A stretch of 64,000 nucleotides of DNA from Escherichia coli. GTDB taxonomy: Bacteria; Pseudomonadota; Gammaproteobacteria; Enterobacterales; Enterobacteriaceae. The stretch lies in NCBI RefSeq assembly GCF_024502345.1, contig NZ_JALDNN010000001.1; one strand, 5' to 3'. The first letter of the stretch is position 1; each line of letters begins with the position of its first letter. The notes below the pieces were generated by a model. That model had not been told where the DNA came from, made no database searches, and saw only the letters and a list, made by a program, of their open reading frames with translations. This document shows positions 8,221 to 62,423 of the stretch, in pieces. Both the position numbers and the translations under genes were made by a program.

Positions 8221-8996
8221 ACGGCTTCCTCCCCAGCCTGTTGGCAGTCGGCATACAGGTCGGCTACCAGAACTCCCGTGATATAGCGTTTATAGGCCAC
8301 GCTGCCCCGCAAATCTTCCTGCGGGAAAATGGCGTTGGCGACAGCCTGTTCAAGTGCATTGCCTTCCAGATTTTGTTTTTCGACATCGTGCAGACGCAGT
8401 GCTTTACTGGCGACGCCATCCAGCGCAATTCGCATACCGTCGTGGTCTGTCATTGCAACGGCTGCCGTCACGACGGTTAAACCTGCCTGAGAACGGCTAA
8501 TTTTGCGGGTCGCACAGGTGCGATACGGATCTTTAATGATAATTTCGGTTAGCAGGCGATCGCATGGGCAGGTCAGGTAGTCCTCGATTGACAGCGTTTC
8601 GCCGTTGCCAAAAACCAGTTCAGCATCCAGTGCCAGCAGGACGGGAAGCAGCACCGACTCTTCCTGCCGGGCGGCGATTTCACCACCAATGGTCGACTGA
8701 TTACGAACATGGCGTGAGTAAACAAAACCGAGGGCTTCACGCAGCGCTGCAGGAATAAATCGCGCATCACGCAGTGGCTGCAAGCGAGACATTGCGCCAA
8801 TCCGCAGTGCACCGTTATCCCAGTCAACCCAGTCCAGTTCCAGATCCTGTAAGGAAATGGCAATCTTTTTATCGGTACGGGTTGGTGTAGCATTGAGTTT
8901 GCTGCCCCCGGCGAACCAGACGGCTTCATCTTGGTAGCGGCGCTTCAGTTCCAGCGCCTGTTCGACAGAGTCGGGCCTGAAAAATTGTTCAATCAT
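8217..8996 (-). CDS. ygfM: FAD-binding subunit of molybdopterin hydroxylase (CoxM/XdhB-like)
   Basis: 259 aa ORF; stop overlaps the xdhD start (translational coupling). Confidence 0.8.
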   Translation of the reverse strand: MIEQFFRPDSVEQALELKRRYQDEAVWFAGGSKLNATPTRTDKKIAISLQDLELDWVDWDNGALRIGAMSRLQPLRDARFIPAALREALGFVYSRHVRNQSTIGGEIAARQEESVLLPVLLALDAELVFGNGETLSIEDYLTCPCDRLLTEIIIKDPYRTCATRKISRSQAGLTVVTAAVAMTDHDGMRIALDGVASKALRLHDVEKQNLEGNALEQAVANAIFPQEDLRGSVAYKRYITGVLVADLYADCQQAGEEAV

Positions 8997-9046
8997 CTTC
9001 TTTCCTTATTTAACCCTCTTCCCTGCGGGAAGAGGGCATCTGTCAT

Positions 9047-10375
9047 TTATGCCAGCGCATCCATCCGACGCCACATACTGGCAGCGGCTTTTCTGGCTTG
9101 TGCATAAATGGAATCGCAATCGAAGTTAAACTGACGGTCTTCATAGACCATCACACCATTGACCATTACGCTGTGAACGCTGCCTGAGCCCATACCGAAA
9201 GCGATATGCCCGGCGATATTGTCTGCCAGCAGCGGCGTCGGCGAGTTGTAATCGCAAATGGTTAAATCAGCTTTGTAACCGGCTTCCAGAAGCCCAAATT
9301 TCGCGCCAAAGTTGCGGCTCATCAGTTCGTTACCGTTAGTCAGGGCTTTGGCAAAACTGTCAGGCCACAGCGGATCACCCGCATCGCGATGTTTAAAGAA
9401 GGCAAATTTCATCTCTTCAAACATGTCCGAACCAATGCCGTCCGTTCCCAACGCCAGATTGCGGATGTCGCTAAGGTGATGGTTGTAGCCGACATGGTTG
9501 TTCATGTTTGAACGGGCGTTATGCACCAGGAACGCATCGCGCTGATTGAGTAGGGCGATGTCATCTTTCGACAAGTACAGCCCATGAGCGACCAGCGTTT
9601 TGCTGTCGATGAGATCGAATTGCGCCAGTCGTGCCAGCAGGTCTTTGCCGTACCAGTGGTGACTGTAGGAAACGTCGTAAAGGTCTTCCGCAGCGTGAAT
9701 ATGCAAACCACGGCCTGTGGCTTTCACGGCTTCACGCAGCATCTCCAGACCGGCATCCGGCACGGTAAACGGCGCGTGAGCACCGATATGTGCTTCCACC
9801 AGATACGGCTCGCTTGTCGCTTTCTTCGCCTCATCAATCAAACGGGCGAAACGGATGTTTTCTTCTACACCTTCCTGCAACTCTTTGATGCCGTTGTTAC
9901 GGTCAGTAGTTTCAAAACAGGTCATTGCGCGCAGGCCAACTTTTAAAAATGCGTCGCGCAATGTGGAGAGCGACCCGCCGATATACGCCGGAGAGGCATG
10001 GTGATCGATAACCGATGTACATCCGCTCTTAATCGCTTCCAGGGAACAAATCAGTCCGCTGTAATAGAGCGACTCTTCATCAAGGGCGCGATCGAGCCGC
10101 CACCAGAGATTTTTCAGCGTTGAGATGAAATCCGGGCAGGGGGCGATGTTTGCCATAATTCCGCGGGAAAGCCCCGAGTAAAAATGGTTGTGCGAGCAGA
10201 CAATTCCCGGCATCACAATCCGACCATGCATCTCTTTGTAGCTGGCATCGGGGTCGCGTTGCGTCAGGGCATCGCCGATAGCGACAATCACGTCATTTTC
10301 GATAGCGATATCAACGCCTTCCTGTACTTTCGCCGGGTGTAACTGCACTGCGGTGACATTCTTCAGAATCAACAT
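9047..10375 (-). CDS. ssnA: amidohydrolase-family protein (putative aminohydrolase)
   Basis: ORF 9047..10441 trimmed to MLILKNVTAVQLHP...; 442 aa; amidohydrolase HxH motif (VCSHNHFY). Confidence 0.8.
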   Translation of the reverse strand: MLILKNVTAVQLHPAKVQEGVDIAIENDVIVAIGDALTQRDPDASYKEMHGRIVMPGIVCSHNHFYSGLSRGIMANIAPCPDFISTLKNLWWRLDRALDEESLYYSGLICSLEAIKSGCTSVIDHHASPAYIGGSLSTLRDAFLKVGLRAMTCFETTDRNNGIKELQEGVEENIRFARLIDEAKKATSEPYLVEAHIGAHAPFTVPDAGLEMLREAVKATGRGLHIHAAEDLYDVSYSHHWYGKDLLARLAQFDLIDSKTLVAHGLYLSKDDIALLNQRDAFLVHNARSNMNNHVGYNHHLSDIRNLALGTDGIGSDMFEEMKFAFFKHRDAGDPLWPDSFAKALTNGNELMSRNFGAKFGLLEAGYKADLTICDYNSPTPLLADNIAGHIAFGMGSGSVHSVMVNGVMVYEDRQFNFDCDSIYAQARKAAASMWRRMDALA

Positions 10376-10377
10376 GA

Positions 10378-13300
10378 TTACACCTCCACGCGGCCCAGCA
10401 GATAATGATGATGCTGGTGGACATGGCTGATGATGCGGCACATATCGTTCAGCTCCGGTGGTACGTTGTTAAACTGACCTTCGCTGTCGATGTTTAACAC
10501 CCAGCTTTGGTTATTCAGACGTACTCGTACCCGGCAATCTTCCACAAGGAAGCCTGGGTTGCTGCTGTTATCAAAGTCTTGCGCCAGGCTGAAGACGGTG
10601 ATTTTGTCTTTGTATGGTTTACCGTTCCACGGACAGAACTGAGCGCAGTTGCCGCATTCGTTACAGTAAGCGTCGAGGTGCAGCGTCTGGAATCTATTCT
10701 GGAAGCCAGGGACTGCAATGGAGACGTTGGCGCGGTTCGGGCAGACATCCACGCACTTGCTGCAAACGTAGTTACATTCAAGGCAGCGAGCAGCTTCCTG
10801 CGCGACAAACGCATCACGATCGTCACTGTTCACCAGCGTGATAGAGATATCGCCTTTACGTTGATAGATTTCCGCCGGATTGACGTTGTTCCAGTATTTA
10901 TTGTTCTGGTGGGAACGGATATTTTCCCGACTAAGGATGGCATCGGTCGCCCGACGCGCGGTTCCGACAGCAGCGACAATGGAGGATGGTCCGCGCTGTA
11001 CGTCGCCGATCATAAAGACGTCAGTCAGACGAGTTTCGCCATTATGGTCGACGTCTGGCCAGCCGTTTTTGTCCAGCGGTACGCCCATCGCATTCAGGGC
11101 TTCAGTATCCTGCTGTTCACCGATGGCGGTGATCAGACTGTCTACATGCAGTGTTACTGTTTCGTTGGTTTCAACCGGACGGCGACGACCTTTCTCATCG
11201 GGTTCGCCAAGCGACATAACGCGCAAGGTTAAGGTGCCATCAGCATCGAAACATTCCGGATTATTCAGGAAACGGAACTCCACGCCGTCGTGCAACGCTT
11301 CTTCATACTCTTCGCGCCATGCGGGCATCTCTTGCAGTGAACGACGGTAAACGATCGTTGCTTTTTCTACGCCTGGAACGCGTAACGCCGCACGAGCGCA
11401 GTCCATTGCGGTGTTACCCGCCCCGACAACGACCACATGTTTGCCCAGCTTGAGCGCTGTACCCTTGTTGTATTCACGCAGGAAGGGGAGTGATTTCCAG
11501 ACATTTTGGTTGTCGCCCGCCAGTTTCACACCGCTATTTTTATCAGTGCCGGTGGCAATCAGAACATAGTGGAAGCCCTGATTTTTTAACTGTTCAACGG
11601 TCAAATCGGGTGAGCAGCCATACTCAAATTTCACGCCGTGAGCGGCAACAAAATCGATATCGTGCTGAATTAACTCTGCAGGAATACGGAACTGAGGGAT
11701 GATATTTTTCACCACGCCGCCCGCATTGGCTTCGCGTTCAAACAGCGTAACCGGATGGCCCGCTCTGGCAAGGAAGTAACCTGCAGCCAGACCCGCCGGA
11801 CCTGCACCAATCACTGCAACCGGATGGCGTGAACCAGAACCGGCTGGTTTGTGCCAGCGTTGCTTATATTCATCCCAACCTTTTTCCAGCGCGACTTTTT
11901 TCAGTTCGCGGATATTCAGTGCACTGTCGTAATCCAGGCGGGTACAGTTGTATTGGCACTGGTGATCGCAAATATGACCGGTAATGGCGGGCAGGGCGTT
12001 GCGTTGGTAGATAAGTTCCAGCGCGTCGGCATAGCGGTGTTCGCCAAGCAGACGGATGTATTCCGGAATATCTTGCTTGATCGCGCAGGCAGTAACACAG
12101 GGGGCAACGTAGCAGTCGGTCAGCGGCAGGTCTTCTGCCACTTCAATACGCTCTTCTGGCTTCCAGTGTTTCTGGGTGTATTCCATGGTTAGCGCGTCTG
12201 CTGCCAGTCTGTTCAGTCGTTCGACGTCAACATGGTCAAGTCCCCAGGCGTCGGAGCCTTCCAGCTCGCGCATGCAGGCACTTAAACGCAGATAGCCACC
12301 AGGTTTCAGCAGGTCGGTTGCCATAGTAATAGGGCGAATACCTGTATCAAAAATATCGCGGATAGTCAGCTGACTGGCACCACCGGAATAAGAAATGGGC
12401 AGTTTGCCGTCAAAGGCGCGAGAGAGAACTGCTGCAACATTGATGGAGAGCGGGAACAGCGCACGGCCTGACATATACATCTCTTCACCAGGCAGTGCGC
12501 CTTTATTGTTGATGGTGCCGAGAGTGTTAGTCAGTTTTACGCCAAAGCCGAGTGATTTTTCTTTTGCCAGTGCCATCAGGCGTTCCAGCATTTCCAGTGC
12601 TTGCGTCAGCTTGAGGTCGTGATCAAATGACTCTTCTTTTAAGCCTATGTAACCGAAACCGCAGACATCGAGGATCTCACGAACACGCGCGTACCCCAGT
12701 AAGGTCGGGTTGAGTTTCACAAAGGTGTTGAGCCCTTTTTCTTCCAGCATGTAGCGGCAAATGGCTTCGATTTCATGCGGAGGACAGCCGTGCATGGTGG
12801 AGAGGGTGACGCCCTGCACCATACTGGTGGGGATGCGAGCGGGTAAGGCTTGCAAGCTTTCGCGTTTTTCCTGCAATCCGTGGCGGGCTAAAAATGCGTC
12901 ATCCTGGAGTAATTTATTCAGCGTATCGCGATATTGCGCGAATTTCGGATGGTCAGATGCGTCCATCATATTGTCGATGAACTGTTGCATCGGCGGTTGC
13001 TTAATACCTTCAAGGTTGTAACCGACGCTCATATTAAAGATGAACGATTTACCGGAATCAGAAGGCTGGAACATCGCTTCGAGAAGGTGCAGGGCAAACC
13101 AGGCTTTGAGGTATTCATCCCAGGCTTTAAGCAGGGTAAATTCGGTAGACCATTCGGTGTTAAAGCACTCGTCTTCGGCATCGATACAGGGCTTTTCCAG
13201 CTCCAGGCGGTCAAGAATTTGGACGGTTTTTAGTTCGATGAAGCGTCCGCCAGTCAGCCAGGAAGTGACAATATTTTGCGCGAGCTGCGTGTGCGGGCCA

Positions 13301-13476
13301 GCGGCAGGGCCGACGGGAGTGGCACAGGTTTCACCGAAGACGCTAACAGTTTTACCTTTTACAGGTGAGTAAAACTGTTGCTCGGGAATACCAAAGATTG
13401 AGCGTTGTTGTTGGTATTCATCAAATATGCGCGTCAAAAGTTCCTCAAACGGAATGGGACGCATAATATCCCCCAT
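10378..13476 (-). CDS. ygfK: large Fe-S/FAD oxidoreductase (GltD-like domain fused to a dihydropyrimidine dehydrogenase-like domain)
   Basis: 1032 aa ORF; nucleotide-binding GAGPAG motif and C-terminal cysteine clusters; stop immediately precedes ssnA. Confidence 0.85.
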   Translation of the reverse strand: MGDIMRPIPFEELLTRIFDEYQQQRSIFGIPEQQFYSPVKGKTVSVFGETCATPVGPAAGPHTQLAQNIVTSWLTGGRFIELKTVQILDRLELEKPCIDAEDECFNTEWSTEFTLLKAWDEYLKAWFALHLLEAMFQPSDSGKSFIFNMSVGYNLEGIKQPPMQQFIDNMMDASDHPKFAQYRDTLNKLLQDDAFLARHGLQEKRESLQALPARIPTSMVQGVTLSTMHGCPPHEIEAICRYMLEEKGLNTFVKLNPTLLGYARVREILDVCGFGYIGLKEESFDHDLKLTQALEMLERLMALAKEKSLGFGVKLTNTLGTINNKGALPGEEMYMSGRALFPLSINVAAVLSRAFDGKLPISYSGGASQLTIRDIFDTGIRPITMATDLLKPGGYLRLSACMRELEGSDAWGLDHVDVERLNRLAADALTMEYTQKHWKPEERIEVAEDLPLTDCYVAPCVTACAIKQDIPEYIRLLGEHRYADALELIYQRNALPAITGHICDHQCQYNCTRLDYDSALNIRELKKVALEKGWDEYKQRWHKPAGSGSRHPVAVIGAGPAGLAAGYFLARAGHPVTLFEREANAGGVVKNIIPQFRIPAELIQHDIDFVAAHGVKFEYGCSPDLTVEQLKNQGFHYVLIATGTDKNSGVKLAGDNQNVWKSLPFLREYNKGTALKLGKHVVVVGAGNTAMDCARAALRVPGVEKATIVYRRSLQEMPAWREEYEEALHDGVEFRFLNNPECFDADGTLTLRVMSLGEPDEKGRRRPVETNETVTLHVDSLITAIGEQQDTEALNAMGVPLDKNGWPDVDHNGETRLTDVFMIGDVQRGPSSIVAAVGTARRATDAILSRENIRSHQNNKYWNNVNPAEIYQRKGDISITLVNSDDRDAFVAQEAARCLECNYVCSKCVDVCPNRANVSIAVPGFQNRFQTLHLDAYCNECGNCAQFCPWNGKPYKDKITVFSLAQDFDNSSNPGFLVEDCRVRVRLNNQSWVLNIDSEGQFNNVPPELNDMCRIISHVHQHHHYLLGRVEV

Positions 13477-13558
13477 AACCCTCTCCTTAGCTTATACAGA
13501 TATCATTGAGTGACCGGTGTTGAGAAATCCGGTGGTTTAGGGGGATAGAGCAACAATC

Positions 13559-13574
13559 GCACCACTCTTGCCAG
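13559..13574 (-). promoter_or_regulatory. candidate sigma-54 (-24/-12) promoter upstream of ygfK
   Basis: minus-strand sequence CTGGCAAGAGTGGTGC: GG and GC dinucleotides at the canonical 10-nt spacing; about 85 bp upstream of the ygfK start. Confidence 0.3.
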
Positions 13575-13797
13575 GTTTGGCGGGAAATATAAAAAAATGT
13601 GAGGCGGCTCGAAACTTAAGGGCTTTTTGTGAATGAACTCACAGGTGCTAAATGAGAATTAAAATCACTCCTGAAAATTATTATTGCCAGCCCATTTATC
13701 ACTTTTTCTCTTTTCTCAAAATCAGTGATTCCTTATCATTATGATAAAGAGTGCCGGAAGGATTAAATATTTGAACGCAATCGTTTAACTACGTTTT

Positions 13798-14478: not shown

Positions 14479-15249
14479 GTGAAAAGTATAGTTGACCCAT
14501 CGGCATTAGTCATTGATTTAGGCGCGCAGAAACGTCCCACTGTGATTTCTGTTGTTGGTGCTGGGGGGAAAACCAGCTTGCTTTTTTGGCTGGCAGAACT
14601 GCTCCAGGCTAGCGGCAGGCGTGTGTTAATCACGACGACAACACATATGTTTATGCCAACGTCTCACTGGCCCGTGGTTTTCTGTCGTGATCCCGCCATG
14701 CTTCCTCATGCGTCTCTTACATCCCCCATTTCATTTTGTTTTCACAGCTGGAAAGCGAACCAGGGAAAAGTGCAGGGATTTACGCCAGAAGCGATTGATG
14801 CACTGGTGCAACGACCAGAGTGTGACGTAATTCTCATTGAAGCAGATGGCTCGCGTGGAATGCCGTTAAAAGCGCCTGATGAGCACGAACCTTGCATACC
14901 CAAAAGCAGTTGCTGCGTGATTGCTGTGATGGGAGGACATACTTTGGGCGCGAAAGTGAGCACAGAAAATGTCCATCGCTGGTCGCAGTTTGCTGATATT
15001 ACCGTGTTAACACCTGATGCAACCTTGCAACTGAGCGATCTCGTTGCGCTGGTTCGCCACCCTCAGGGGGCGTTTAAAAACGTACCGCAAGGTTGTCGGC
15101 GAGTCTGGTTCATTAACCGTTTTTCTCAATGTGAGAATGCGATTGCACAAAGCGAGCTCCTTCAACCGCTGCAACAACACGACGTAGAGGCAATCTGGCT
15201 GGGCGATATACAAGAACATCCTGCAATCGCGCGCAGATTTGTGAATTAG
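14479..15249 (+). CDS. yqeC: uncharacterized protein with P-loop-like N-terminus, possible selenium/molybdenum cofactor accessory factor
   Basis: 256 aa ORF with Walker-A-like motif (VVGAGGKTSL); divergent from mocA. Confidence 0.7.
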   Translation: MKSIVDPSALVIDLGAQKRPTVISVVGAGGKTSLLFWLAELLQASGRRVLITTTTHMFMPTSHWPVVFCRDPAMLPHASLTSPISFCFHSWKANQGKVQGFTPEAIDALVQRPECDVILIEADGSRGMPLKAPDEHEPCIPKSSCCVIAVMGGHTLGAKVSTENVHRWSQFADITVLTPDATLQLSDLVALVRHPQGAFKNVPQGCRRVWFINRFSQCENAIAQSELLQPLQQHDVEAIWLGDIQEHPAIARRFVN

Positions 15250-23184: not shown

Positions 23185-23200
23185 AACAATAAGTGTGCCA
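23185..23200 (-). promoter_or_regulatory. weak candidate sigma-54 promoter upstream of ygeW
   Basis: minus-strand sequence TGGCACACTTATTGTT: perfect -24 TGGCAC, but the -12 element is TTGT rather than TTGC; about 100 bp upstream of the ygeW start. Confidence 0.2.
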
Positions 23201-23569
23201 GAATTATCCGCGCGGCTGCAAAAGACTAATTTGACGGATAATGTGTGGGGTTGATCACAAATTGATGCCAGCTTCTGGTTGTTTGTAAAATACGAAAACG
23301 TTTGGCTTTTTTTATCGCGTTATTTATTTGCTGCTAAGTATCAGAAATAAGATAAAGGGGCAGGCTATCTCTCTTCAGTTTGATAAACTCACCGCCGTAA
23401 TTCTCATATTGATATAGAAATGTGATATCTCTTCCATAATTTCATTAGAAAATGATAAAAATCTTATGTTTTTATCAAAGCCAATTTCGCCTGAGTTAAT
23501 ATCATCATGATCTGTGAACCATCAACGTCTTCAATGATCGACTTTTAAGTAAGTCTGGAAGGTAAAGCT

Positions 23570-25348
23570 ATGGAGCTTGCTACTACGCAGTCAGTATTGA
23601 TGCAAATTCAACCGACAATTCAGCGTTTTGCCAGAATGCTTGCCAGCGTTTTGCAGCTTGAGGTTGAGATCGTTGATGAAAACTTGTGTCGCGTCGCCGG
23701 AACGGGCGCGTATGGGAAGTTTCTTGGTCGCCAGTTGAGCGGCAACTCACGCCTGCTCCGCCACGTCCTGGAAACGAAAACTGAAAAAGTTGTGACACAG
23801 TCTCGCTTCGATCCCCTTTGCGAAGGTTGCGATAGTAAAGAAAATTGCCGCGAAAAAGCATTTCTGGGTACGCCTGTCATTTTACAGGATCGTTGTGTTG
23901 GGGTGATAAGTTTGATTGCCGTTACCCACGAGCAACAAGAGCATATCAGTGATAATTTACGCGAATTTTCTGATTATGTTCGCCATATATCCACCATTTT
24001 TGTTTCGAAACTTCTGGAGGATCAGGGGCCAGGAGATAACATCAGTAAAATATTCGCGACCATGATCGATAATATGGATCAGGGCGTATTAGTTGTTGAT
24101 GATGAAAGTCGGGTTCAGTTTGTTAATCAGACTGCCTTAAAAACACTTGGTGTTGTACAAAATAATATTATTGGGAAACCTATCCGTTTCAGACCATTAA
24201 CATTTGAGAGTAATTTTACTCATGGACATATGCAGCATATTGTTTCGTGGGACGATAAAAGTGAATTAATCATTGGTCAATTGCATAACATTCAGGGCCG
24301 ACAATTATTTTTAATGGCATTTCACCAATCGCATACCAGTTTTTCTGTAGCAAATGCACCTGATGAACCACATATTGAACAATTGGTTGGCGAGTGCCGT
24401 GTTATGCGGCAATTAAAACGACTCATTAGCCGTATTGCACCCAGCCCATCCAGCGTTATGGTGGTTGGTGAAAGTGGCACGGGTAAAGAAGTCGTCGCCC
24501 GAGCAATCCATAAGTTGAGCGGAAGACGGAATAAACCCTTTATTGCTATCAACTGTGCCGCGATTCCGGAGCAGCTTCTGGAAAGCGAACTGTTCGGTTA
24601 TGTTAAAGGCGCATTTACTGGCGCTTCTGCCAACGGTAAAACAGGGTTGATTCAGGCGGCGAATACGGGCACGCTGTTTCTCGATGAAATAGGTGATATG
24701 CCATTAATGTTGCAGGCTAAATTACTGCGCGCTATTGAGGCGCGTGAAATTCTGCCGATTGGTGCCAGTAGCCCAATACAAGTCGACATTCGCATCATTT
24801 CTGCAACTAATCAGAATTTGGCCCAGTTCATTGCCGAAGGTAAATTCCGCGAAGATCTCTTCTACCGACTTAATGTTATCCCGATAACTCTGCCACCGCT
24901 GCGTGAACGTCAGGAAGATATTGAACTATTGGTGCATTACTTTTTACATCTGCATACCCGTCGTCTGGGATCGGTTTATCCTGGCATTGCTCCCGATGTC
25001 GTCGAAATATTGCGTAAGCATCGTTGGCCCGGAAACCTGCGCGAGTTAAGCAATTTGATGGAATATCTGGTTAACGTAGTTCCTTCAGGTGAAGTTATCG
25101 ACAGCACGCTATTGCCGCCAAATCTGCTGAATAATGGCACAACGGAGCAAAGTGATGTAACAGAGGTCAGTGAGGCGCACCTGTCACTCGATGATGCGGG
25201 CGGCACGGCGCTGGAGGAGATGGAAAAGCAAATGATCCGCGAGGCGCTTTCACGTCATAACAGCAAGAAGCAAGTTGCTGATGAACTGGGCATCGGCATT
25301 GCTACGCTCTATCGCAAGATTAAGAAATATGAGTTGTTAAACACATAA
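23570..25348 (+). CDS. ygeV: sigma-54-dependent transcriptional activator (bacterial enhancer-binding protein)
   Basis: 592 aa ORF; AAA+ sigma-54 interaction domain with Walker A (GESGTGKE) and GAFTGA motif; C-terminal Fis-type HTH. Confidence 0.85.
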   Translation: MELATTQSVLMQIQPTIQRFARMLASVLQLEVEIVDENLCRVAGTGAYGKFLGRQLSGNSRLLRHVLETKTEKVVTQSRFDPLCEGCDSKENCREKAFLGTPVILQDRCVGVISLIAVTHEQQEHISDNLREFSDYVRHISTIFVSKLLEDQGPGDNISKIFATMIDNMDQGVLVVDDESRVQFVNQTALKTLGVVQNNIIGKPIRFRPLTFESNFTHGHMQHIVSWDDKSELIIGQLHNIQGRQLFLMAFHQSHTSFSVANAPDEPHIEQLVGECRVMRQLKRLISRIAPSPSSVMVVGESGTGKEVVARAIHKLSGRRNKPFIAINCAAIPEQLLESELFGYVKGAFTGASANGKTGLIQAANTGTLFLDEIGDMPLMLQAKLLRAIEAREILPIGASSPIQVDIRIISATNQNLAQFIAEGKFREDLFYRLNVIPITLPPLRERQEDIELLVHYFLHLHTRRLGSVYPGIAPDVVEILRKHRWPGNLRELSNLMEYLVNVVPSGEVIDSTLLPPNLLNNGTTEQSDVTEVSEAHLSLDDAGGTALEEMEKQMIREALSRHNSKKQVADELGIGIATLYRKIKKYELLNT

Positions 25349-25387: not shown

Positions 25388-25867
25388 TTACTTCGTTTTC
25401 TCGCAATCCAGAACTGTATTTACAATCATCTGATACCCCGTGCAGCGACAAAGATTTCCCGCCAGTCCGCGACGAATTTCCGTAATGGTTAATGGCTTCT
25501 CGCGTGGTTTCGCCAGCATTGCCGTGGTAGCCATAATCAGGCCAGGCGTACAAAACCCGCACTGCACTGCGCCGGATTTCGCATAAGCCTGCTGAACATG
25601 AGAAAGTTTTCCGCCTTTCGCTTCACCTTCCAGCGTGCGGATCTCTTTTCCTTCAGCCCAGGCGGCAAGGTATAAGCAACTGTCTATTGCTGTGCCGTCG
25701 ACCAACACCGTACAGGCACCACATTCACCCACGCAGCACCCTTGTTTGACACTTAGCAGTCCTTGTTCGCGGAGTAATTCCGAGAGCGGCGTGCCTGGTG
25801 CGGCGTGAAGCTGAAAAGGCATCCCGTTAATGGTGCATTCGATGGTAATTGTTTCGCTGTGATTCAT
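25388..25867 (-). CDS. xdhC: xanthine dehydrogenase 2Fe-2S subunit
   Basis: 159 aa ORF; ferredoxin-like cysteine clusters ([16 protein letters not shown]). Confidence 0.85.
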
Positions 25868-26742
25868 TGCAATTTTCCCCCCGCCGCGGCGACGGCTTCG
25901 CTAATCACTTTTTTGGTCATCGTCTGGATGAGATGCAGACGAAACTCTTTACTGGCCCGCCATGAAGAACGCGGGGCGACATCTTGCAGGACAGATTCGC
26001 TGATAGCTTCCAGCGTTTGCAGGTTTAATGGCGCATTTTGTGCAGTCTGTTCGGCATGTTGGCAGCGAATCGGCGTTGGCGCGGCAACACCAAATGCCAG
26101 GCGTAATTCGCTGAAATTGTCGTTATCCAGTCGGCAATGTGCGGCGCAGCCAATCGTTGAAATATCCATTGCGTCGCGCATGGCATATTTAAAATGCGCG
26201 CTGCCCGCGTGTTCTTTCGGCTGTGGCGGAAAATGAAAGGCGACGAGGATTTCGTCATGCTCAAGAGACACTTTGCCCGGCCCGGTGTGAAAGCCATTAA
26301 TCGGGACGAAACGAACACCGCGCGGGGAGTGGATCTCCAGTTTCGCGTCATAAATTAGCGTTGGCGTGGCAGAATCTGCGCTGGTGGCACCGTTGCAAAT
26401 ATTTCCACCGTAGGTAGCGACGTTACGGATCTGCGGTCCAGCAATGGACGTGGCCGCAGCACATAACGCCGGGAGATGACGTTGAGTTATAGGATCTTCT
26501 ATTAGCTGGGTAAATGTCGTTGCAGAGCCGATACGTAGCGAGCCATCTTCCGCCAGCGTAATTCCCCGCAGCTCCGCCAGATTATGAATATCAACAATAT
26601 GGCGATAACGGTCATTGTGATGGTGGAGCTGAATCAGTACGTCAGTGCCACCGGCGAGCAGTTTGGCCTGCGGGTTGTCAGCCAGCAGGTTGATGGCATC
26701 GGCAAGGGTTGCTGCGCGATGGTAAGAAGCAAAATCAAACAT
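25864..26742 (-). CDS. xdhB: xanthine dehydrogenase FAD-binding subunit
   Basis: 292 aa ORF; stop overlaps the xdhC start. Confidence 0.85.
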
Positions 26743-26752
26743 GATGTTATCC

Positions 26753-29011
26753 TCAAATCAATCCTGCCAGATGGAACTCTTCATATAACCGTTTTGGCGT
26801 CAGCGGCAGTGTATTGATTGCAACACCGGTAGCCATCTTCACCGCGTTACGAATAGCAGCGGCAACAGGAATTATTGGTGGCTCACCCAGTGACTTATGT
26901 CCGTATGCGGATTGCGGCTCATTGATTTCGACGAACGCGCTTTCCAGTTGTGGCAGATCCGGCATGGTCGGCATTTTGTAATCCAGCAGATTGGGGTTAC
27001 GGACCACGCCGCTTTTAGCATCGATGATCATCTCTTCAAATAGCGCCCAGCCAATGCCCATTCCCATTCCGCCGTGTACCTGACCTTCTGCCAGCAGTGG
27101 ATTAAGAATATGCCCTGAATCATGAACGTTGAGGATGCGGTTGATGGTGACTTTGCACAGCGCAATATCGACCGTCAGATCAACAAAGGTACAGCCAAAC
27201 GCCGGTGGGTTAGTGGTGGTTTTGATGGAGCTTTCAGCAGAGAGCTGCCCGCCGCGTTCAGGGTGGTAGAAAGCGTCCATCGCCAAATCTTTTAACGACA
27301 TTAACGGCTCTTCCGGTCGTTCAACCAGCACGATATGGCCTTTTATCAGGGTCAGATTCATCGCTGACTGATGTAGCATGACTGCGGCGTGAGCGATGAT
27401 TTTCTCTTTTAATAATAGTGCCGCACTGCGCAGCGCAGGCGCGGCAACATAGCTCTGGCGTGAGGCAAATGCGCCGGGATCGAACGGCGTAACGTCGGTA
27501 TCTTGAGTTGAAATAACGCGAACGTCGCTGACCGGAACCCCCACGGTTTCTGCCACCATTTGCGAGAAGACGGTGTCGGCACCCTGACCGATTTCCGTCG
27601 CGCCGCTTTGCACGTTGATGGTTCCATCCTGATTCATCAGAAGGCGCGCGCCTGCTATTTCTACGCCGACAGGCCAGGTGTTAGAGGTGTAGCTAAAACA
27701 GGCGACGCCAACGCCGCGGCGCAAATTGCCTTGCTGGTTCTGGCATTCTGCACGGCGTTTTTCCCATTCAAAGATTTTCCGGCCTTTTTCAAGACACTCC
27801 GGCAACCCTGCGCTGTAAATACGTTTGCCCGTGAGCGGATTAGCATCTCCTTCGCGGGCGGCGTTGCGTAAACGAATTTCAACAGGATCAATACCTAACG
27901 CTGTCGCGGCGTCATCAAGCATAGACTCAACGGCAAATACGACTTGTGGCGCGCCATAACCACGCATCGCACCAGCCGAGGGGAGGTTGGTATAGCAGGT
28001 CTTTGAACTGTAAGCGTAGGCACAACGAGGATAAAGGTAAGCGACTTTATTCCCCCCCGCAGAAGCGATGGAGTGCCCGTGAGATGCATAAGCGCCGGTG
28101 TTAGACAGAACATCCAGACTATAACCTTTCAATGTTCCGTCGCGGTTCACGCCCATTTGCCCGTCAATGGTAAAAGCGTGGCGGGTACGGGTTGCGAGGA
28201 AACACTCTTCACGGCTAAGGGAAACTTTCACCGGAATGCCGCCAAGCTTGCTGGTCAGGAATGCCGCCATTGGCTCTTCCAGTACATCCTGTTTATTACC
28301 AAAACCGCCACCGACAAATGGTTTGATGACTCGTACGCATGACCAGGGAATATCCAGCGCCTGACCAACCACGCGGCGAACAATGTGCGGGATCTGGGTG
28401 CTGGAAACGATGGTAATTCGCGAGTCATCCTCCATCCACGCCAGCGATGTTACGCTTTCCATGTGACAATGTTGAATAACGGGGGTCTGATAGTGCCCCT
28501 GTACCTGGTAGTCGGCGGCATCGATTGTTTGTTGGACATTACCCGTCGACATCGTGCTTTGTTTCAGTAAATTGCCACCGTTATGGATTGGTGCAGCGTC
28601 TTCTGCCAGCGCCGCTTCTGGCGTGGTGATAACGGGTAATTCTTGCCACTCAATGCTGACCAATTGCGCCGCTTTTTCTGCCGTGAGTTCATCGCGGGCC
28701 ACGACGATGGCAACGGCGTCACCATGATGACGAACATGGCGAGTTAGCAGTGCGCGATCGGCGGTATCGCGCTTGTTTTCGTCAAGTGTCCAGGCATGCC
28801 CAGCTGTAGCGAATGGAATATCAGGCACATCTTCCCAGGTAAAAATCGCCAGTACGCCCGGCAAACTTCTGGCTTGTTCATCATTAATACTTACGGCATA
28901 ACCATGTGCGATAGGGCTACGTACATATTTCGCATAACACATGCCCGCCATAACATAATCGTCAGTATATCGTGCCCGCCCGGTGACCTTAGCAATGGCA
29001 TCGACGCGCAT
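26753..29011 (-). CDS. xdhA: xanthine dehydrogenase molybdopterin-binding subunit
   Basis: ORF 26753..29050 trimmed to MRVDAIAKVTGRARY...; 752 aa; molybdopterin hydroxylase motifs (GGGFGNK). Confidence 0.85.
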   Translation of the reverse strand: MRVDAIAKVTGRARYTDDYVMAGMCYAKYVRSPIAHGYAVSINDEQARSLPGVLAIFTWEDVPDIPFATAGHAWTLDENKRDTADRALLTRHVRHHGDAVAIVVARDELTAEKAAQLVSIEWQELPVITTPEAALAEDAAPIHNGGNLLKQSTMSTGNVQQTIDAADYQVQGHYQTPVIQHCHMESVTSLAWMEDDSRITIVSSTQIPHIVRRVVGQALDIPWSCVRVIKPFVGGGFGNKQDVLEEPMAAFLTSKLGGIPVKVSLSREECFLATRTRHAFTIDGQMGVNRDGTLKGYSLDVLSNTGAYASHGHSIASAGGNKVAYLYPRCAYAYSSKTCYTNLPSAGAMRGYGAPQVVFAVESMLDDAATALGIDPVEIRLRNAAREGDANPLTGKRIYSAGLPECLEKGRKIFEWEKRRAECQNQQGNLRRGVGVACFSYTSNTWPVGVEIAGARLLMNQDGTINVQSGATEIGQGADTVFSQMVAETVGVPVSDVRVISTQDTDVTPFDPGAFASRQSYVAAPALRSAALLLKEKIIAHAAVMLHQSAMNLTLIKGHIVLVERPEEPLMSLKDLAMDAFYHPERGGQLSAESSIKTTTNPPAFGCTFVDLTVDIALCKVTINRILNVHDSGHILNPLLAEGQVHGGMGMGIGWALFEEMIIDAKSGVVRNPNLLDYKMPTMPDLPQLESAFVEINEPQSAYGHKSLGEPPIIPVAAAIRNAVKMATGVAINTLPLTPKRLYEEFHLAGLI

Positions 29012-29105
29012 GCATGATTCACCCGTAGCGGTTGCTTCCCGCGCTTCCATAGAAATCCCCTCGATTTGAACATTTGGTTCTTATGGCAAAGATTTAGTCT
29101 AAGCA

Positions 29106-29122
29106 GGCAAGATTTACGCCAG
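29106..29122 (-). promoter_or_regulatory. candidate sigma-54 (-24/-12) promoter upstream of xdhABC
   Basis: minus-strand sequence CTGGCGTAAATCTTGCC: matches YTGGCACG-N4-TTGCW at the GG and TTGC core positions; about 95 bp upstream of the xdhA start. Confidence 0.35.
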
Positions 29123-29464
29123 AAACGACGATAAGCGTTAGGGGAGGTAGGAAGTGTGATGACGTTAAAAAAACACAGATATGATACGAAACAGGACTCT
29201 GAATAGGGGCAGTGATACGTATCAATATGAGTGGCGATAAAATCAATGTGATAAATTGGGATTATTACGCATCAGGATGGGAAATAGGGTAAAAAGTCAG
29301 GAACTTCGATACCTCTACAGCGAATATTTTGCTGATGATACTTCCCTTTGCCAAATGAAATTAACCTCTTTCTCTATTACCACGTTTTTCCAGAAGCAAG
29401 AGATTGGGTATCAAGAGGCTGGCTGCTATGATAAGGCGTCTTGTTTTTTAAGCGAGGAAAGATT

Positions 29465-59534: not shown

Positions 59535-62423
59535 ATGCCCCGCAGCACCTGGTTCAAAGCATTATTGTTGTTAGTTGCCCTTTGGGCACCCTTAAGTCAG
59601 GCAGAAACGGGATGGCAGCCGATTCAGGAAACCATCCGTAAAAGTGATAAAGATAACCGCCAGTATCAGGCTATACGTCTGGATAACGGTATGGTGGTCT
59701 TGCTGGTTTCTGATCCGCAGGCAGTTAAATCGCTCTCGGCGCTGGTGGTGCCCGTTGGGTCGCTGGAAGATCCCGAGGCGTACCAGGGGCTGGCACATTA
59801 CCTTGAACATATGAGTCTGATGGGGTCGAAAAAGTACCCGCAGGCTGACAGTCTGGCCGAATATCTCAAAATGCACGGCGGTAGTCACAATGCCAGCACT
59901 GCGCCGTATCGCACGGCTTTCTATCTGGAAGTTGAGAACGACGCCTTGCCTGGTGCGGTAGACCGCCTGGCTGATGCTATTGCAGAACCCTTGCTCGACA
60001 AGAAATACGCCGAACGTGAGCGTAATGCAGTGAACGCTGAATTAACCATGGCGCGTACGCGTGACGGGATGCGCATGGCACAGGTCAGCGCAGAAACCAT
60101 TAACCCGGCACACCCCGGTTCAAAGTTTTCTGGTGGTAACCTCGAAACTTTAAGCGACAAACCTGGTAATCCGGTGCAGCAGGCGCTGAAAGATTTCCAC
60201 GAGAAGTACTATTCCGCCAATCTGATGAAGGCGGTTATTTACAGCAATAAACCGCTGCCGGAGTTGGCAAAAATGGCGGCGGACACCTTTGGTCGCGTGC
60301 CGAACAAAGAGAGCAAAAAACCGGAAATCACCGTGCCGGTAGTCACCGACGCGCAAAAGGGCATTATCATTCATTACGTCCCGGCGCTGCCGCGTAAAGT
60401 GTTGCGCGTAGAGTTTCGTATTGATAACAACTCGGCGAAATTCCGTAGCAAAACCGATGAATTGATTACCTATCTGATTGGTAATCGCAGCCCAGGTACA
60501 CTTTCCGACTGGCTGCAAAAGCAGGGATTAGTTGAGGGCATTAGCGCCAACTCCGATCCTATCGTCAACGGCAACAGCGGCGTATTAGCGATCTCTGCGT
60601 CTTTAACCGATAAAGGTCTGGCGAATCGCGATCAGGTTGTGGCGGCTATTTTTAGCTACCTCAATTTGTTACGTGAAAAAGGGATCGATAAACAATACTT
60701 CGATGAACTGGCGAATGTGCTGGATATCGACTTCCGTTATCCGTCAATCACCCGTGATATGGATTACGTCGAATGGCTGGCAGATACCATGATTCGCGTT
60801 CCTGTTGAGCATACGCTGGATGCAGTCAATATTGCCGATCGGTACGATGCTAAAGCAGTAAAGGAACGTCTGGCGATGATGACGCCGCAGAATGCGCGTA
60901 TCTGGTATATCAGCCCGAAAGAGCCGCACAACAAAACGGCTTACTTTGTCGATGCGCCGTATCAGGTCGATAAAATCAGCGCACAAACTTTCGCCGACTG
61001 GCAGAAAAAAGCCGCCGACATTGCGCTCTCTTTGCCAGAGCTTAACCCTTATATTCCTGACGATTTCTCGCTGATTAAGTCAGAGAAGAAATACGACCAT
61101 CCAGAGCTGATTGTTGATGAGTCGAATCTGCGCGTGGTGTATGCGCCAAGCCGTTATTTTTCCAGCGAACCCAAAGCTGATGTCAGCCTGATTTTGCGTA
61201 ATCCGAAAGCCATGGACAGCGCCAGCAATCAGGTGATGTTTGCGCTCAATGATTATCTCGCAGGGCTGGCGCTTGATCAGTTAAGCAACCAGGCGTCGGT
61301 TGGTGGCATAAGTTTTTCCACCAACGCTAACAACGGCCTTATGGTTAATGCTAATGGTTACACCCAGCGTCTGCCGCAGCTGTTCCAGGCATTGCTCGAG
61401 GGCTACTTTAACTATACCGCTACGGAAGATCAGCTTGAGCAGGCGAAGTCCTGGTATAACCAGATGATGGATTCCGCAGAAAAGGGTAAAGCGTTTGAGC
61501 AGGCGATTATGCCCGCGCAGATGCTCTCGCAAGTGCCGTACTTCTCGCGAGATGAACGGCGTAAAATTTTGCCCTCCATTACGTTGAAAGAGGTGCTGGC
61601 TTATCGCGACGCCTTAAAATCAGGGGCTCGACCAGAGTTTATGGTTATCGGCAACATGACCGAGGCCCAGGCAACAACGCTGGCACGCGATGTGCAAAAA
61701 CAGTTGGGCGCTGATGGTTCAGAGTGGTGTCGAAACAAAGATGTAGTGGTCGATAAAAAACAATCCGTCATCTTTGAAAAAGCTGGTAACAGCACCGACT
61801 CCGCACTGGCAGCGGTATTTGTACCGACTGGCTACGATGAATACACCAGCTCAGCCTATAGCTCTCTGTTGGGGCAGATCGTACAGCCGTGGTTCTACAA
61901 TCAGTTGCGTACTGAAGAACAATTGGGCTATGCCGTGTTTGCATTTCCAATGAGCGTGGGGCGTCAGTGGGGCATGGGCTTCCTTTTGCAAAGCAATGAT
62001 AAACAGCCTTCCTTCTTGTGGGAGCGTTACAAGGCGTTTTTCCCAACCGCAGAGGCAAAATTGCGGGCGATGAAGCCAGAAGAGTTTGCGCAAATCCAGC
62101 AGGCGGTAATTACCCAGATGCTGCAGGCACCGCAAACGCTCGGCGAAGAAGCATCGAAGTTAAGTAAAGATTTCGATCGCGGCAATATGCGCTTCGATTC
62201 GCGTGATAAAATCGTGGCCCAGATAAAACTGCTGACGCCGCAAAAACTTGCTGATTTCTTCCATCAGGCGGTGGTCGAGCCGCAAGGCATGGCTATTCTG
62301 TCGCAGATTTCCGGCAGCCAGAACGGGAAAGCCGAATATGTGCATCCTGAAGGCTGGAAAGTGTGGGAGAACGTCAGCGCGTTGCAGCAAACAATGCCCC
62401 TGATGAGTGAAAAGAATGAGTGA
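59535..62423 (+). CDS. ptrA: protease III (pitrilysin, M16 family)
   Basis: 962 aa; signal peptide and inverted zinc-binding HxxEH motif (HYLEHM). Confidence 0.95.
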   Translation: MPRSTWFKALLLLVALWAPLSQAETGWQPIQETIRKSDKDNRQYQAIRLDNGMVVLLVSDPQAVKSLSALVVPVGSLEDPEAYQGLAHYLEHMSLMGSKKYPQADSLAEYLKMHGGSHNASTAPYRTAFYLEVENDALPGAVDRLADAIAEPLLDKKYAERERNAVNAELTMARTRDGMRMAQVSAETINPAHPGSKFSGGNLETLSDKPGNPVQQALKDFHEKYYSANLMKAVIYSNKPLPELAKMAADTFGRVPNKESKKPEITVPVVTDAQKGIIIHYVPALPRKVLRVEFRIDNNSAKFRSKTDELITYLIGNRSPGTLSDWLQKQGLVEGISANSDPIVNGNSGVLAISASLTDKGLANRDQVVAAIFSYLNLLREKGIDKQYFDELANVLDIDFRYPSITRDMDYVEWLADTMIRVPVEHTLDAVNIADRYDAKAVKERLAMMTPQNARIWYISPKEPHNKTAYFVDAPYQVDKISAQTFADWQKKAADIALSLPELNPYIPDDFSLIKSEKKYDHPELIVDESNLRVVYAPSRYFSSEPKADVSLILRNPKAMDSASNQVMFALNDYLAGLALDQLSNQASVGGISFSTNANNGLMVNANGYTQRLPQLFQALLEGYFNYTATEDQLEQAKSWYNQMMDSAEKGKAFEQAIMPAQMLSQVPYFSRDERRKILPSITLKEVLAYRDALKSGARPEFMVIGNMTEAQATTLARDVQKQLGADGSEWCRNKDVVVDKKQSVIFEKAGNSTDSALAAVFVPTGYDEYTSSAYSSLLGQIVQPWFYNQLRTEEQLGYAVFAFPMSVGRQWGMGFLLQSNDKQPSFLWERYKAFFPTAEAKLRAMKPEEFAQIQQAVITQMLQAPQTLGEEASKLSKDFDRGNMRFDSRDKIVAQIKLLTPQKLADFFHQAVVEPQGMAILSQISGSQNGKAEYVHPEGWKVWENVSALQQTMPLMSEKNE

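Follow-up and report, generated by a model that had tools for sequence, protein, structure and literature searches.

A sigma-54 promoter upstream of xdhABC in Escherichia coli and candidate enhancer sites for YgeV

A 17-base element upstream of xdhABC is a real sigma-54 promoter, and it is already known, having been published and confirmed between 2001 and 2015. EcoCyc records the same object as the sigma-54 promoter of xdhA in E. coli K-12; 17-mer, orientation, and downstream gene are all identical, and the promoter itself shows no difference. We analyzed it within a window of 64,000 nucleotides, which is the whole stretch of E. coli DNA under study. It is very probable that xdhABC is transcribed from this sigma-54-dependent promoter, with YgeV as the most likely activator acting through upstream dyads. 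Beyond the known K-12 promoter, the analysis adds a cross-genus footprint, candidate enhancer dyads, and a point on the xdhA start codon. Coordinates are collected in Table 1.

Sequence and published evidence for the xdhA promoter

Enhancer-dependent promoters hold RNA polymerase as a closed complex on a GG-N10-GC core, where it awaits an AAA+ activator. The initial annotation described a sigma-54 match facing xdhA, with the GG and GC pairs, the TTGC element, and the spacing in place, and the minus strand from 29122 to 29106 does read CTGGCGTAAATCTTGCC. This sequence has the form TGGC-N7-TTGC, with GG at 29120-29119 and GC at 29108-29107 (ten bases apart, the canonical sigma-54 spacing). It is located in the 390 nt that separate xdhA on the minus strand from actS/ygeR on the plus strand, and it is oriented toward xdhA. 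The window is E. coli chromosome, with the region matched in 5,411 of 5,426 complete genomes, and the 300 nt around the element are 100% identical to E. coli K-12 MG1655. The window is also 100% identical to strain RM8352 (locus L001) over a 601-base query; between ygfK and xdhA these two sequences differ in length by 181 bp (the offset changes from 8,899 to 9,080; window positions of about 10378-13476 were compared).

A sigma-54 matrix was built from the 38 intergenic ChIP-seq motifs of Bonocora et al. (2015), minus the four of this cluster. The xdhA element scores 11.97 bits and ranks sixth among approximately 128,000 window positions. The element is within the span of known sites (7.9 to 20.9 bits) and under their median of 16.6 bits. 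Seven window positions score at least as high, compared to 7.07 expected from dinucleotide-preserving shuffles. The TGGC-N7-TTGC pattern occurs seven times in the window (4.64 expected), and the off-spacing control TGGC-N8-TTGC also gives seven matches (4.97 expected). Because matches across the window are no more frequent than chance, the promoter could not be established from sequence alone. At this score, approximately 0.02 chance sites are expected on the correct strand of the 390-nt intergenic region.

Published ChIP-seq sites (in ptrA and at ygeW, xdhA, and ygfK) account for four of the seven best matrix hits in the window, and the intragenic ptrA site is the best hit. A further published intragenic site lies in yqeC and faces yqeB. 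Upstream of ygfK there are two overlapping sigma-54-like motifs (13549-13574, minus strand); Bonocora et al. (2015; PMC4591121) chose GTGGTGCGATTGTTGCT, and Zhao et al. (2010; PMC2831329) chose CTGGCAAGAGTGGTGCG at 13558-13574, which scores 11.0 bits here. The ygfT site (OS32 of Bonocora et al.) is outside the window.

Published ChIP-seq, rpoN-dependent expression, and co-expression on identical DNA support the view, put forward in the initial annotation, that xdhABC has a sigma-54 promoter and is enhancer-dependent. The novelty that it implied did not hold, as the same site was predicted in 2001, stands in EcoCyc as experimentally confirmed, and appears in three genome-wide studies. Reitzer and Schneider (2001) are credited with the promoter by Lamoureux et al. 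(2023). Zhao, Liu and Burgess (NAR 2010; PMC2831329) listed xdhA among new sigma-54 regulon candidates and gave its site as tttcTGGCGTAAATCTTGCCTGctta at -110 to -93, which is the same site as here. In their microarrays xdhA mRNA followed the sigma-54 level in both directions, rising 4.9-fold upon sigma-54 induction and falling 2.1-fold in an rpoN mutant (PMC2831329). In Bonocora et al. (PLoS Genet 2015; PMC4591121), the identical 17-mer is the intergenic sense sigma-54 ChIP-seq site OS29 of K-12, with the peak centred on it, an 11-fold enrichment over threshold, a matrix score of 10.9, and a start predicted 84 nt before xdhA; it carries the flag "C" for experimentally confirmed in EcoCyc. On identical DNA, sigma-54 RNA polymerase is placed in vivo on a -24 element TGGCGT and a -12 element TTGC (PMC4591121). 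The wording in that study is "binding site" and not "promoter," since ChIP reports binding rather than transcription. Lamoureux et al. (2023) placed xdhABC within the 13-gene YgeV iModulon, a co-expression module. Genomic SELEX with sigma-54 holoenzyme alone, in vitro, detected the ygeV/ygeW spacer and did not detect the xdhA upstream region, which is consistent with a weaker site at xdhA.

The rule of Bonocora et al. (2015) places the predicted transcription start at 29095 and reproduces their 84-nt distance to the ATG at 29011. No mapped transcription start for xdhA was found in the accessible literature, and the K-12 RefSeq record has no regulatory feature annotated at the promoter site.

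Table 1. Promoter elements, candidate regulatory sites, and genes in the 64,000-nucleotide window.
Feature	Position	Strand	Basis or description
xdhA sigma-54 -24/-12 promoter element CTGGCGTAAATCTTGCC	29106..29122	minus	Sequence reading, matrix score, published identity
Predicted xdhA transcription start	29095	minus	12 nt past the C of the -12 GC, or 19 nt past the motif centre
xdhA, long form (765 aa)	26753..29050	minus	ATG 29050 after Shine-Dalgarno AGGGGA; RefSeq PGAP start
xdhB	25864..26742	minus	Operon member
xdhC	25388..25867	minus	Operon member
ygeV	23570..25348	plus	Sigma-54 activator gene, intact; Pfam scan, motif search, annotation
xdhA distal dyad TTATCACATTGATTT	29240..29254	minus	Centre -152; alignment block; 18.0 bits; candidate YgeV enhancer site
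xdhA proximal dyad GTATCAATATGAGTG	29219..29233	plus	Centre -131; alignment block; 19.6 bits
xdhA conserved element near -60 TTTTTTTAACGTCATCACACTTCC	29150..29173	minus	TCAC invariant at -64..-61; CRP-like half-site
ygeW sigma-54 promoter CTGGCACACTTATTGTT	23185..23201	minus	Matrix; Bonocora OS30; gSELEX
ygeW CRP-type element TGTGATCAACCCCACA	23242-23261	minus	Between dyads and promoter
ygeW dyad hit	23401-23415		17.3 bits; 234 nt upstream of ygeW sigma-54 start
ygeV-ygeW spacer dyad hit	23499-23513		13.8 bits; -332 relative to ygeW start
ygfK sigma-54 promoter GTGGTGCGATTGTTGCT	13549..13565	minus	12.0 bits; Bonocora OS31
ygfK CRP-type element TGTGAGTTCATTCACA	13628-13643	minus	Perfect; between dyads and promoter
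ygfK second dyad site	13713-13727		-182; 20 bp from the first
ygfK dyad hit, perfect dyad TTATCATAATGATAA	13733-13747		20.2 bits; 202 nt upstream of ygfK sigma-54 start
Intragenic sigma-54 site in ptrA CTGGCACGCGATGTGCA	61680-61696	plus	Bonocora IS33; 16.25 bits, best matrix hit in the window
Intragenic sigma-54 site in yqeC, facing yqeB TGAGCACGAACCTTGCA	14880-14896	plus	Bonocora IS34

Conservation upstream of xdhA and the start codon

Conservation of the motif is far beyond chance. A scan for XdhA in species-representative genomes gave 32 loci, 28 of which have usable upstream sequence, from 11 genera (Escherichia, Citrobacter, Kluyvera, Atlantibacter, Buttiauxella, Hafnia, Enterobacillus, Yokenella, Klebsiella indica, Trabulsiella, and Pluralibacter). 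For every one of the 28, the homologous motif is the top matrix hit in the 450 nt upstream of xdhA and lies 86-114 nt ahead of the position of the K-12 ATG. It scores 10.0-16.3 bits, and runner-up hits reach at most 8.8 bits. In the most distant genera (Buttiauxella, Hafnia, and Enterobacillus), the -12 element is TTGCT, which is nearer consensus and brings the score to 14.5-16.3 bits.

Approximately 290 nt of non-coding DNA upstream of xdhA was aligned for 18 non-redundant sequences from the 11 genera. Only four invariant runs of at least three bases are present: TGGCGT (-26 to -21) and TTGC (-15 to -12) in the promoter, TCAC (-64 to -61), and TGA (-129 to -127). Mean conservation is 1.00 in the promoter elements, 0.74 in the 5-nt spacer between them, and 0.51 in the other non-coding columns; the two elements are fixed while spacer and flanks drift. 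Of the checks proposed in the initial annotation, conservation of the motif came out in favor of the site, and matrix scoring gave a modest match, at chance frequency across the window.

Two start codons have been annotated for xdhA. The K-12 annotation begins at ATG 29011 (752 aa), and RefSeq PGAP begins at the in-frame ATG 29050. The upstream ATG is aligned and conserved across genera, whereas Trabulsiella, Buttiauxella, Hafnia, and Enterobacillus have CTG, TTG, or AAA at 29011. The gene as annotated in K-12 is thus probably 13 codons too short. From the last base of the motif there are 95 nt to ATG 29011 and 56 nt to ATG 29050; the distance of about 95 bp given in the initial annotation is correct for the K-12 start and does not apply to the conserved one.

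YgeV and the dyads shared by three promoters

The neighboring ygeV gene encodes a sigma-54 activator. As first annotated, it adjoins xdhC, with its end 39 nt from the xdhC end and the two genes convergent. Pfam domains in YgeV are PAS, Sigma54_activat (E = 2e-70), an AAA lid, and HTH_8, with a weak GAF-like N-terminus, and the GESGTGK (Walker A), GAFTGA, and DEI (Walker B) motifs are intact. No receiver domain was found in YgeV by Pfam scan. YgeV has a PAS domain in place of a receiver and its N-terminal region is uncharacterised, so that it is more likely a ligand-sensing activator, presumably controlled by its ligand, than a target of phosphorylation. In an mBio paper from 2022 the protein was renamed IsrR and termed an orphan response regulator. 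Proposed YgeV signals include urate or purines, indole, and ethanol stress. Liu et al. cite ygeV as needed for urate consumption.

The gene order of xdhABC, convergent ygeV, and divergent ygeW is retained in most genera. ygeV is adjacent in Escherichia, Citrobacter, Atlantibacter, Buttiauxella, Yokenella, Klebsiella indica, Trabulsiella, and Pluralibacter. Neither ygeV nor ygeW was found within 6 kb downstream in the 14-kb loci of Kluyvera (L009, L010, and L020), Hafnia (L015), and Enterobacillus (L017). In these five loci the cluster is arranged differently, and the sigma-54 promoter and dyads are retained upstream of xdhABC.

The two dyads upstream of the xdhA promoter are 21 bp apart and inverted relative to each other. 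In the alignment they form the blocks TATCAcaaTGA (centre -152) and TCAtatTGATA (centre -131), and the proximal one contains the invariant TGA. A 15-nt dyad matrix was made from 27 sites of other genera only, with the window excluded, and all 64 kb were scanned with it. The top five distinct sites are all upstream of the xdhA, ygfK, and ygeW sigma-54 promoters, and the ten best hits are all within the purine cluster at 13.7-29.3 kb. Five hits score at least 17 bits (0.09 expected), and ten score at least 13 bits (1.55 expected). Dyads at ygeW are at -234, -205, and -332, and the spacing within the pairs is 21 bp at xdhA, 29 bp at ygeW, and 20 bp at ygfK. The TATCA-N3-TGA dyads are probably the YgeV enhancer or operator, for which we propose them as candidates from their sequence and placement. 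No description of this dyad motif or of a YgeV operator was found in the searchable literature, and a literature search found no follow-up work on YgeV/IsrR binding sites. Separately, a dyad-like site, TTCTCACATTGAGAA, is present at 15123-15137 at the yqeC-yqeB junction.

The interval from dyads to promoter contains a third conserved element. At xdhA, the block near -60 (TTTTTTTAACGTCATCACACTTCC) matches the CRP 22-mer at 12 of 22 positions with a perfect right half when read by eye. It consists of the right half-site only (TTTTA-N6-TCACA), with an invariant A at the position of the A in the left TGTGA. ygeW and ygfK have full CRP cores (TGTGA-N6-TCACA), also read by eye, at about -77 and -97, respectively. 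A recent paper mentions that the ygeV-ygeW spacer contains a native Crp site and that glucose represses urate degradation, and a CRP-type element at all three promoters fits the reported repression.

Other identities for these elements were considered. The block near -60 is not a third YgeV dyad (-5.6 bits on the dyad matrix), nor is it an IHF site by consensus match; the IHF consensus WATCAANNNNTTR, with one mismatch or fewer, was not found in the interval between dyads and promoter at xdhA, ygeW, or ygfK, although IHF sites in this position are common without being obligatory. A known RNA family in the xdhA leader was likewise rejected, with no Rfam match at E <= 1. Upstream of ygeW, the stretch AGCCAAACGTTTTCGTA (23291-23307, minus strand), located between dyads and CRP site, shows strong conservation across genera. 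We take it to resemble the PurR operator (ACGCAAACGTTTGCGT), and a PurR-like site there would tie the cluster to purine-pool sensing.

The three control regions are similar. Like xdhA, ygeW and ygfK have a -24/-12 element with upstream TATCA-N3-TGA dyads (-130 to -235), a CRP-type element between dyads and promoter, and membership of the YgeV co-expression module. They differ in that the ygeW promoter is much nearer consensus (16.0 bits) and was detected by gSELEX, whereas the weaker xdhA promoter (12.0 bits) went undetected. The layout also resembles those of glnAp2 with NtrC and prpBCDE with PrpR, which share with xdhA and YgeV the GG-N10-GC core, an AAA+ activator that carries GAFTGA and a Fis-type helix-turn-helix, and dyads in pairs that lie more than 100 bp upstream and about two helical turns apart. 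Unlike these classical enhancer-dependent systems, YgeV lacks a receiver domain and has a PAS domain, and xdhA has no IHF consensus match.

Based on these features, the following mechanism is proposed. Polymerase bound at the -24/-12 element would stay in the closed state until ATP hydrolysis by an AAA+ activator remodels the complex. YgeV, whose gene lies just past xdhC, is the most likely activator. This choice, also made in the initial annotation, has indirect support in the YgeV iModulon and in the need for ygeV in urate consumption, and xdhA would depend directly on YgeV. YgeV would most likely bind the dyads at -152 and -131 through its Fis-type helix-turn-helix and contact the promoter by DNA looping. 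Transcription would then start near 29095 and translation at ATG 29050. With the same dyads at ygeW and ygfK, xanthine dehydrogenase and the anaerobic urate-degradation cluster may form one regulon, and the simplest reading would have YgeV activate all three promoters through the dyads. For the wider proposal, that the dyads are the YgeV operator and that xdhA, ygeW, and ygfK share one three-part control region made up of dyads, CRP-type element, and sigma-54 promoter, we consider the chances evenly balanced.

Alternative explanations and significance

Among the alternatives, the one that survives best is that the promoter is genuine and a different sigma-54 activator, such as NtrC, drives xdhA while the dyads bind another protein; we regard this as unlikely. 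The loci of Kluyvera, Hafnia, and Enterobacillus, which keep promoter and dyads in 14 kb that lack ygeV, speak for it, and no experiment on YgeV binding at xdhA or on dependence of xdhA on ygeV was found in the literature. However, the dyads are unlike the NtrC site, TGCACC-N5-GGTGCA, and the same dyads occur in the ygeV-ygeW spacer and at ygfK, where the cluster encoding YgeV has its two other sigma-54 promoters. Co-variation of xdhABC with those operons in the YgeV iModulon also argues for YgeV. NtrC does give a genomic SELEX peak at the xdhB/xdhC junction (Shimada et al., 2021; K-12 3,001,538, converted to window position ~25840), but this peak is 3.3 kb downstream of the xdhA promoter.

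It is more doubtful still that sigma-54 holoenzyme is merely poised at the site, or non-productive there, with xdhABC transcribed from an unrecognised sigma-70 promoter. ChIP detects binding and not firing, as the term "binding site" in Bonocora et al. (2015) reflects, and the YgeV module is nearly always silent in 1035 RNA-seq samples (Lamoureux et al., 2023); both would suit a poised complex. A sigma-70 promoter better than chance was not found in the xdhA intergenic region. The single weak sigma-70-like match there (29354-29326) equals chance expectation and is in non-conserved DNA, so we rejected it as the alternative promoter. Against a poised site, xdhA mRNA responds both ways to the sigma-54 level, and the element, the paired dyads, and the neighboring activator gene are conserved across 11 genera, which would be hard to explain for a dead site. 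A functionless chance resemblance to the consensus, which the shuffle-level frequency of equally good matches in the window might have suggested, is already refuted by ChIP-seq occupancy in vivo at the exact motif and by its invariance across 11 genera while flanks drift, and only 0.02 such sites are expected by chance at this position and orientation.

A sigma-54-dependent promoter with YgeV as its most likely activator therefore remains the preferred reading for xdhABC. Three parts of the analysis, all peripheral to the promoter itself, may be new: the candidate YgeV operator motif common to three promoters, the arrangement of dyads, CRP-type site, and sigma-54 promoter that they share, and the probably mis-annotated K-12 xdhA start codon.

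Gut bacteria degrade purines and urate anaerobically with the cluster of xdhABC, ygeWXY, and ygfK. Probiotic E. coli is being equipped with this cluster to lower uric acid in gout models, and engineers bypass its native control because that control is poorly understood and glucose-repressed. Once the arrangement of YgeV operator, CRP-type site, and sigma-54 promoter is defined, the natural regulation could be tested, and this would help settle the signal to which YgeV responds. If the proposed operator and three-part control region are correct, they would for the first time define by sequence the YgeV regulon that would govern anaerobic purine and urate breakdown in gut Enterobacteriaceae.
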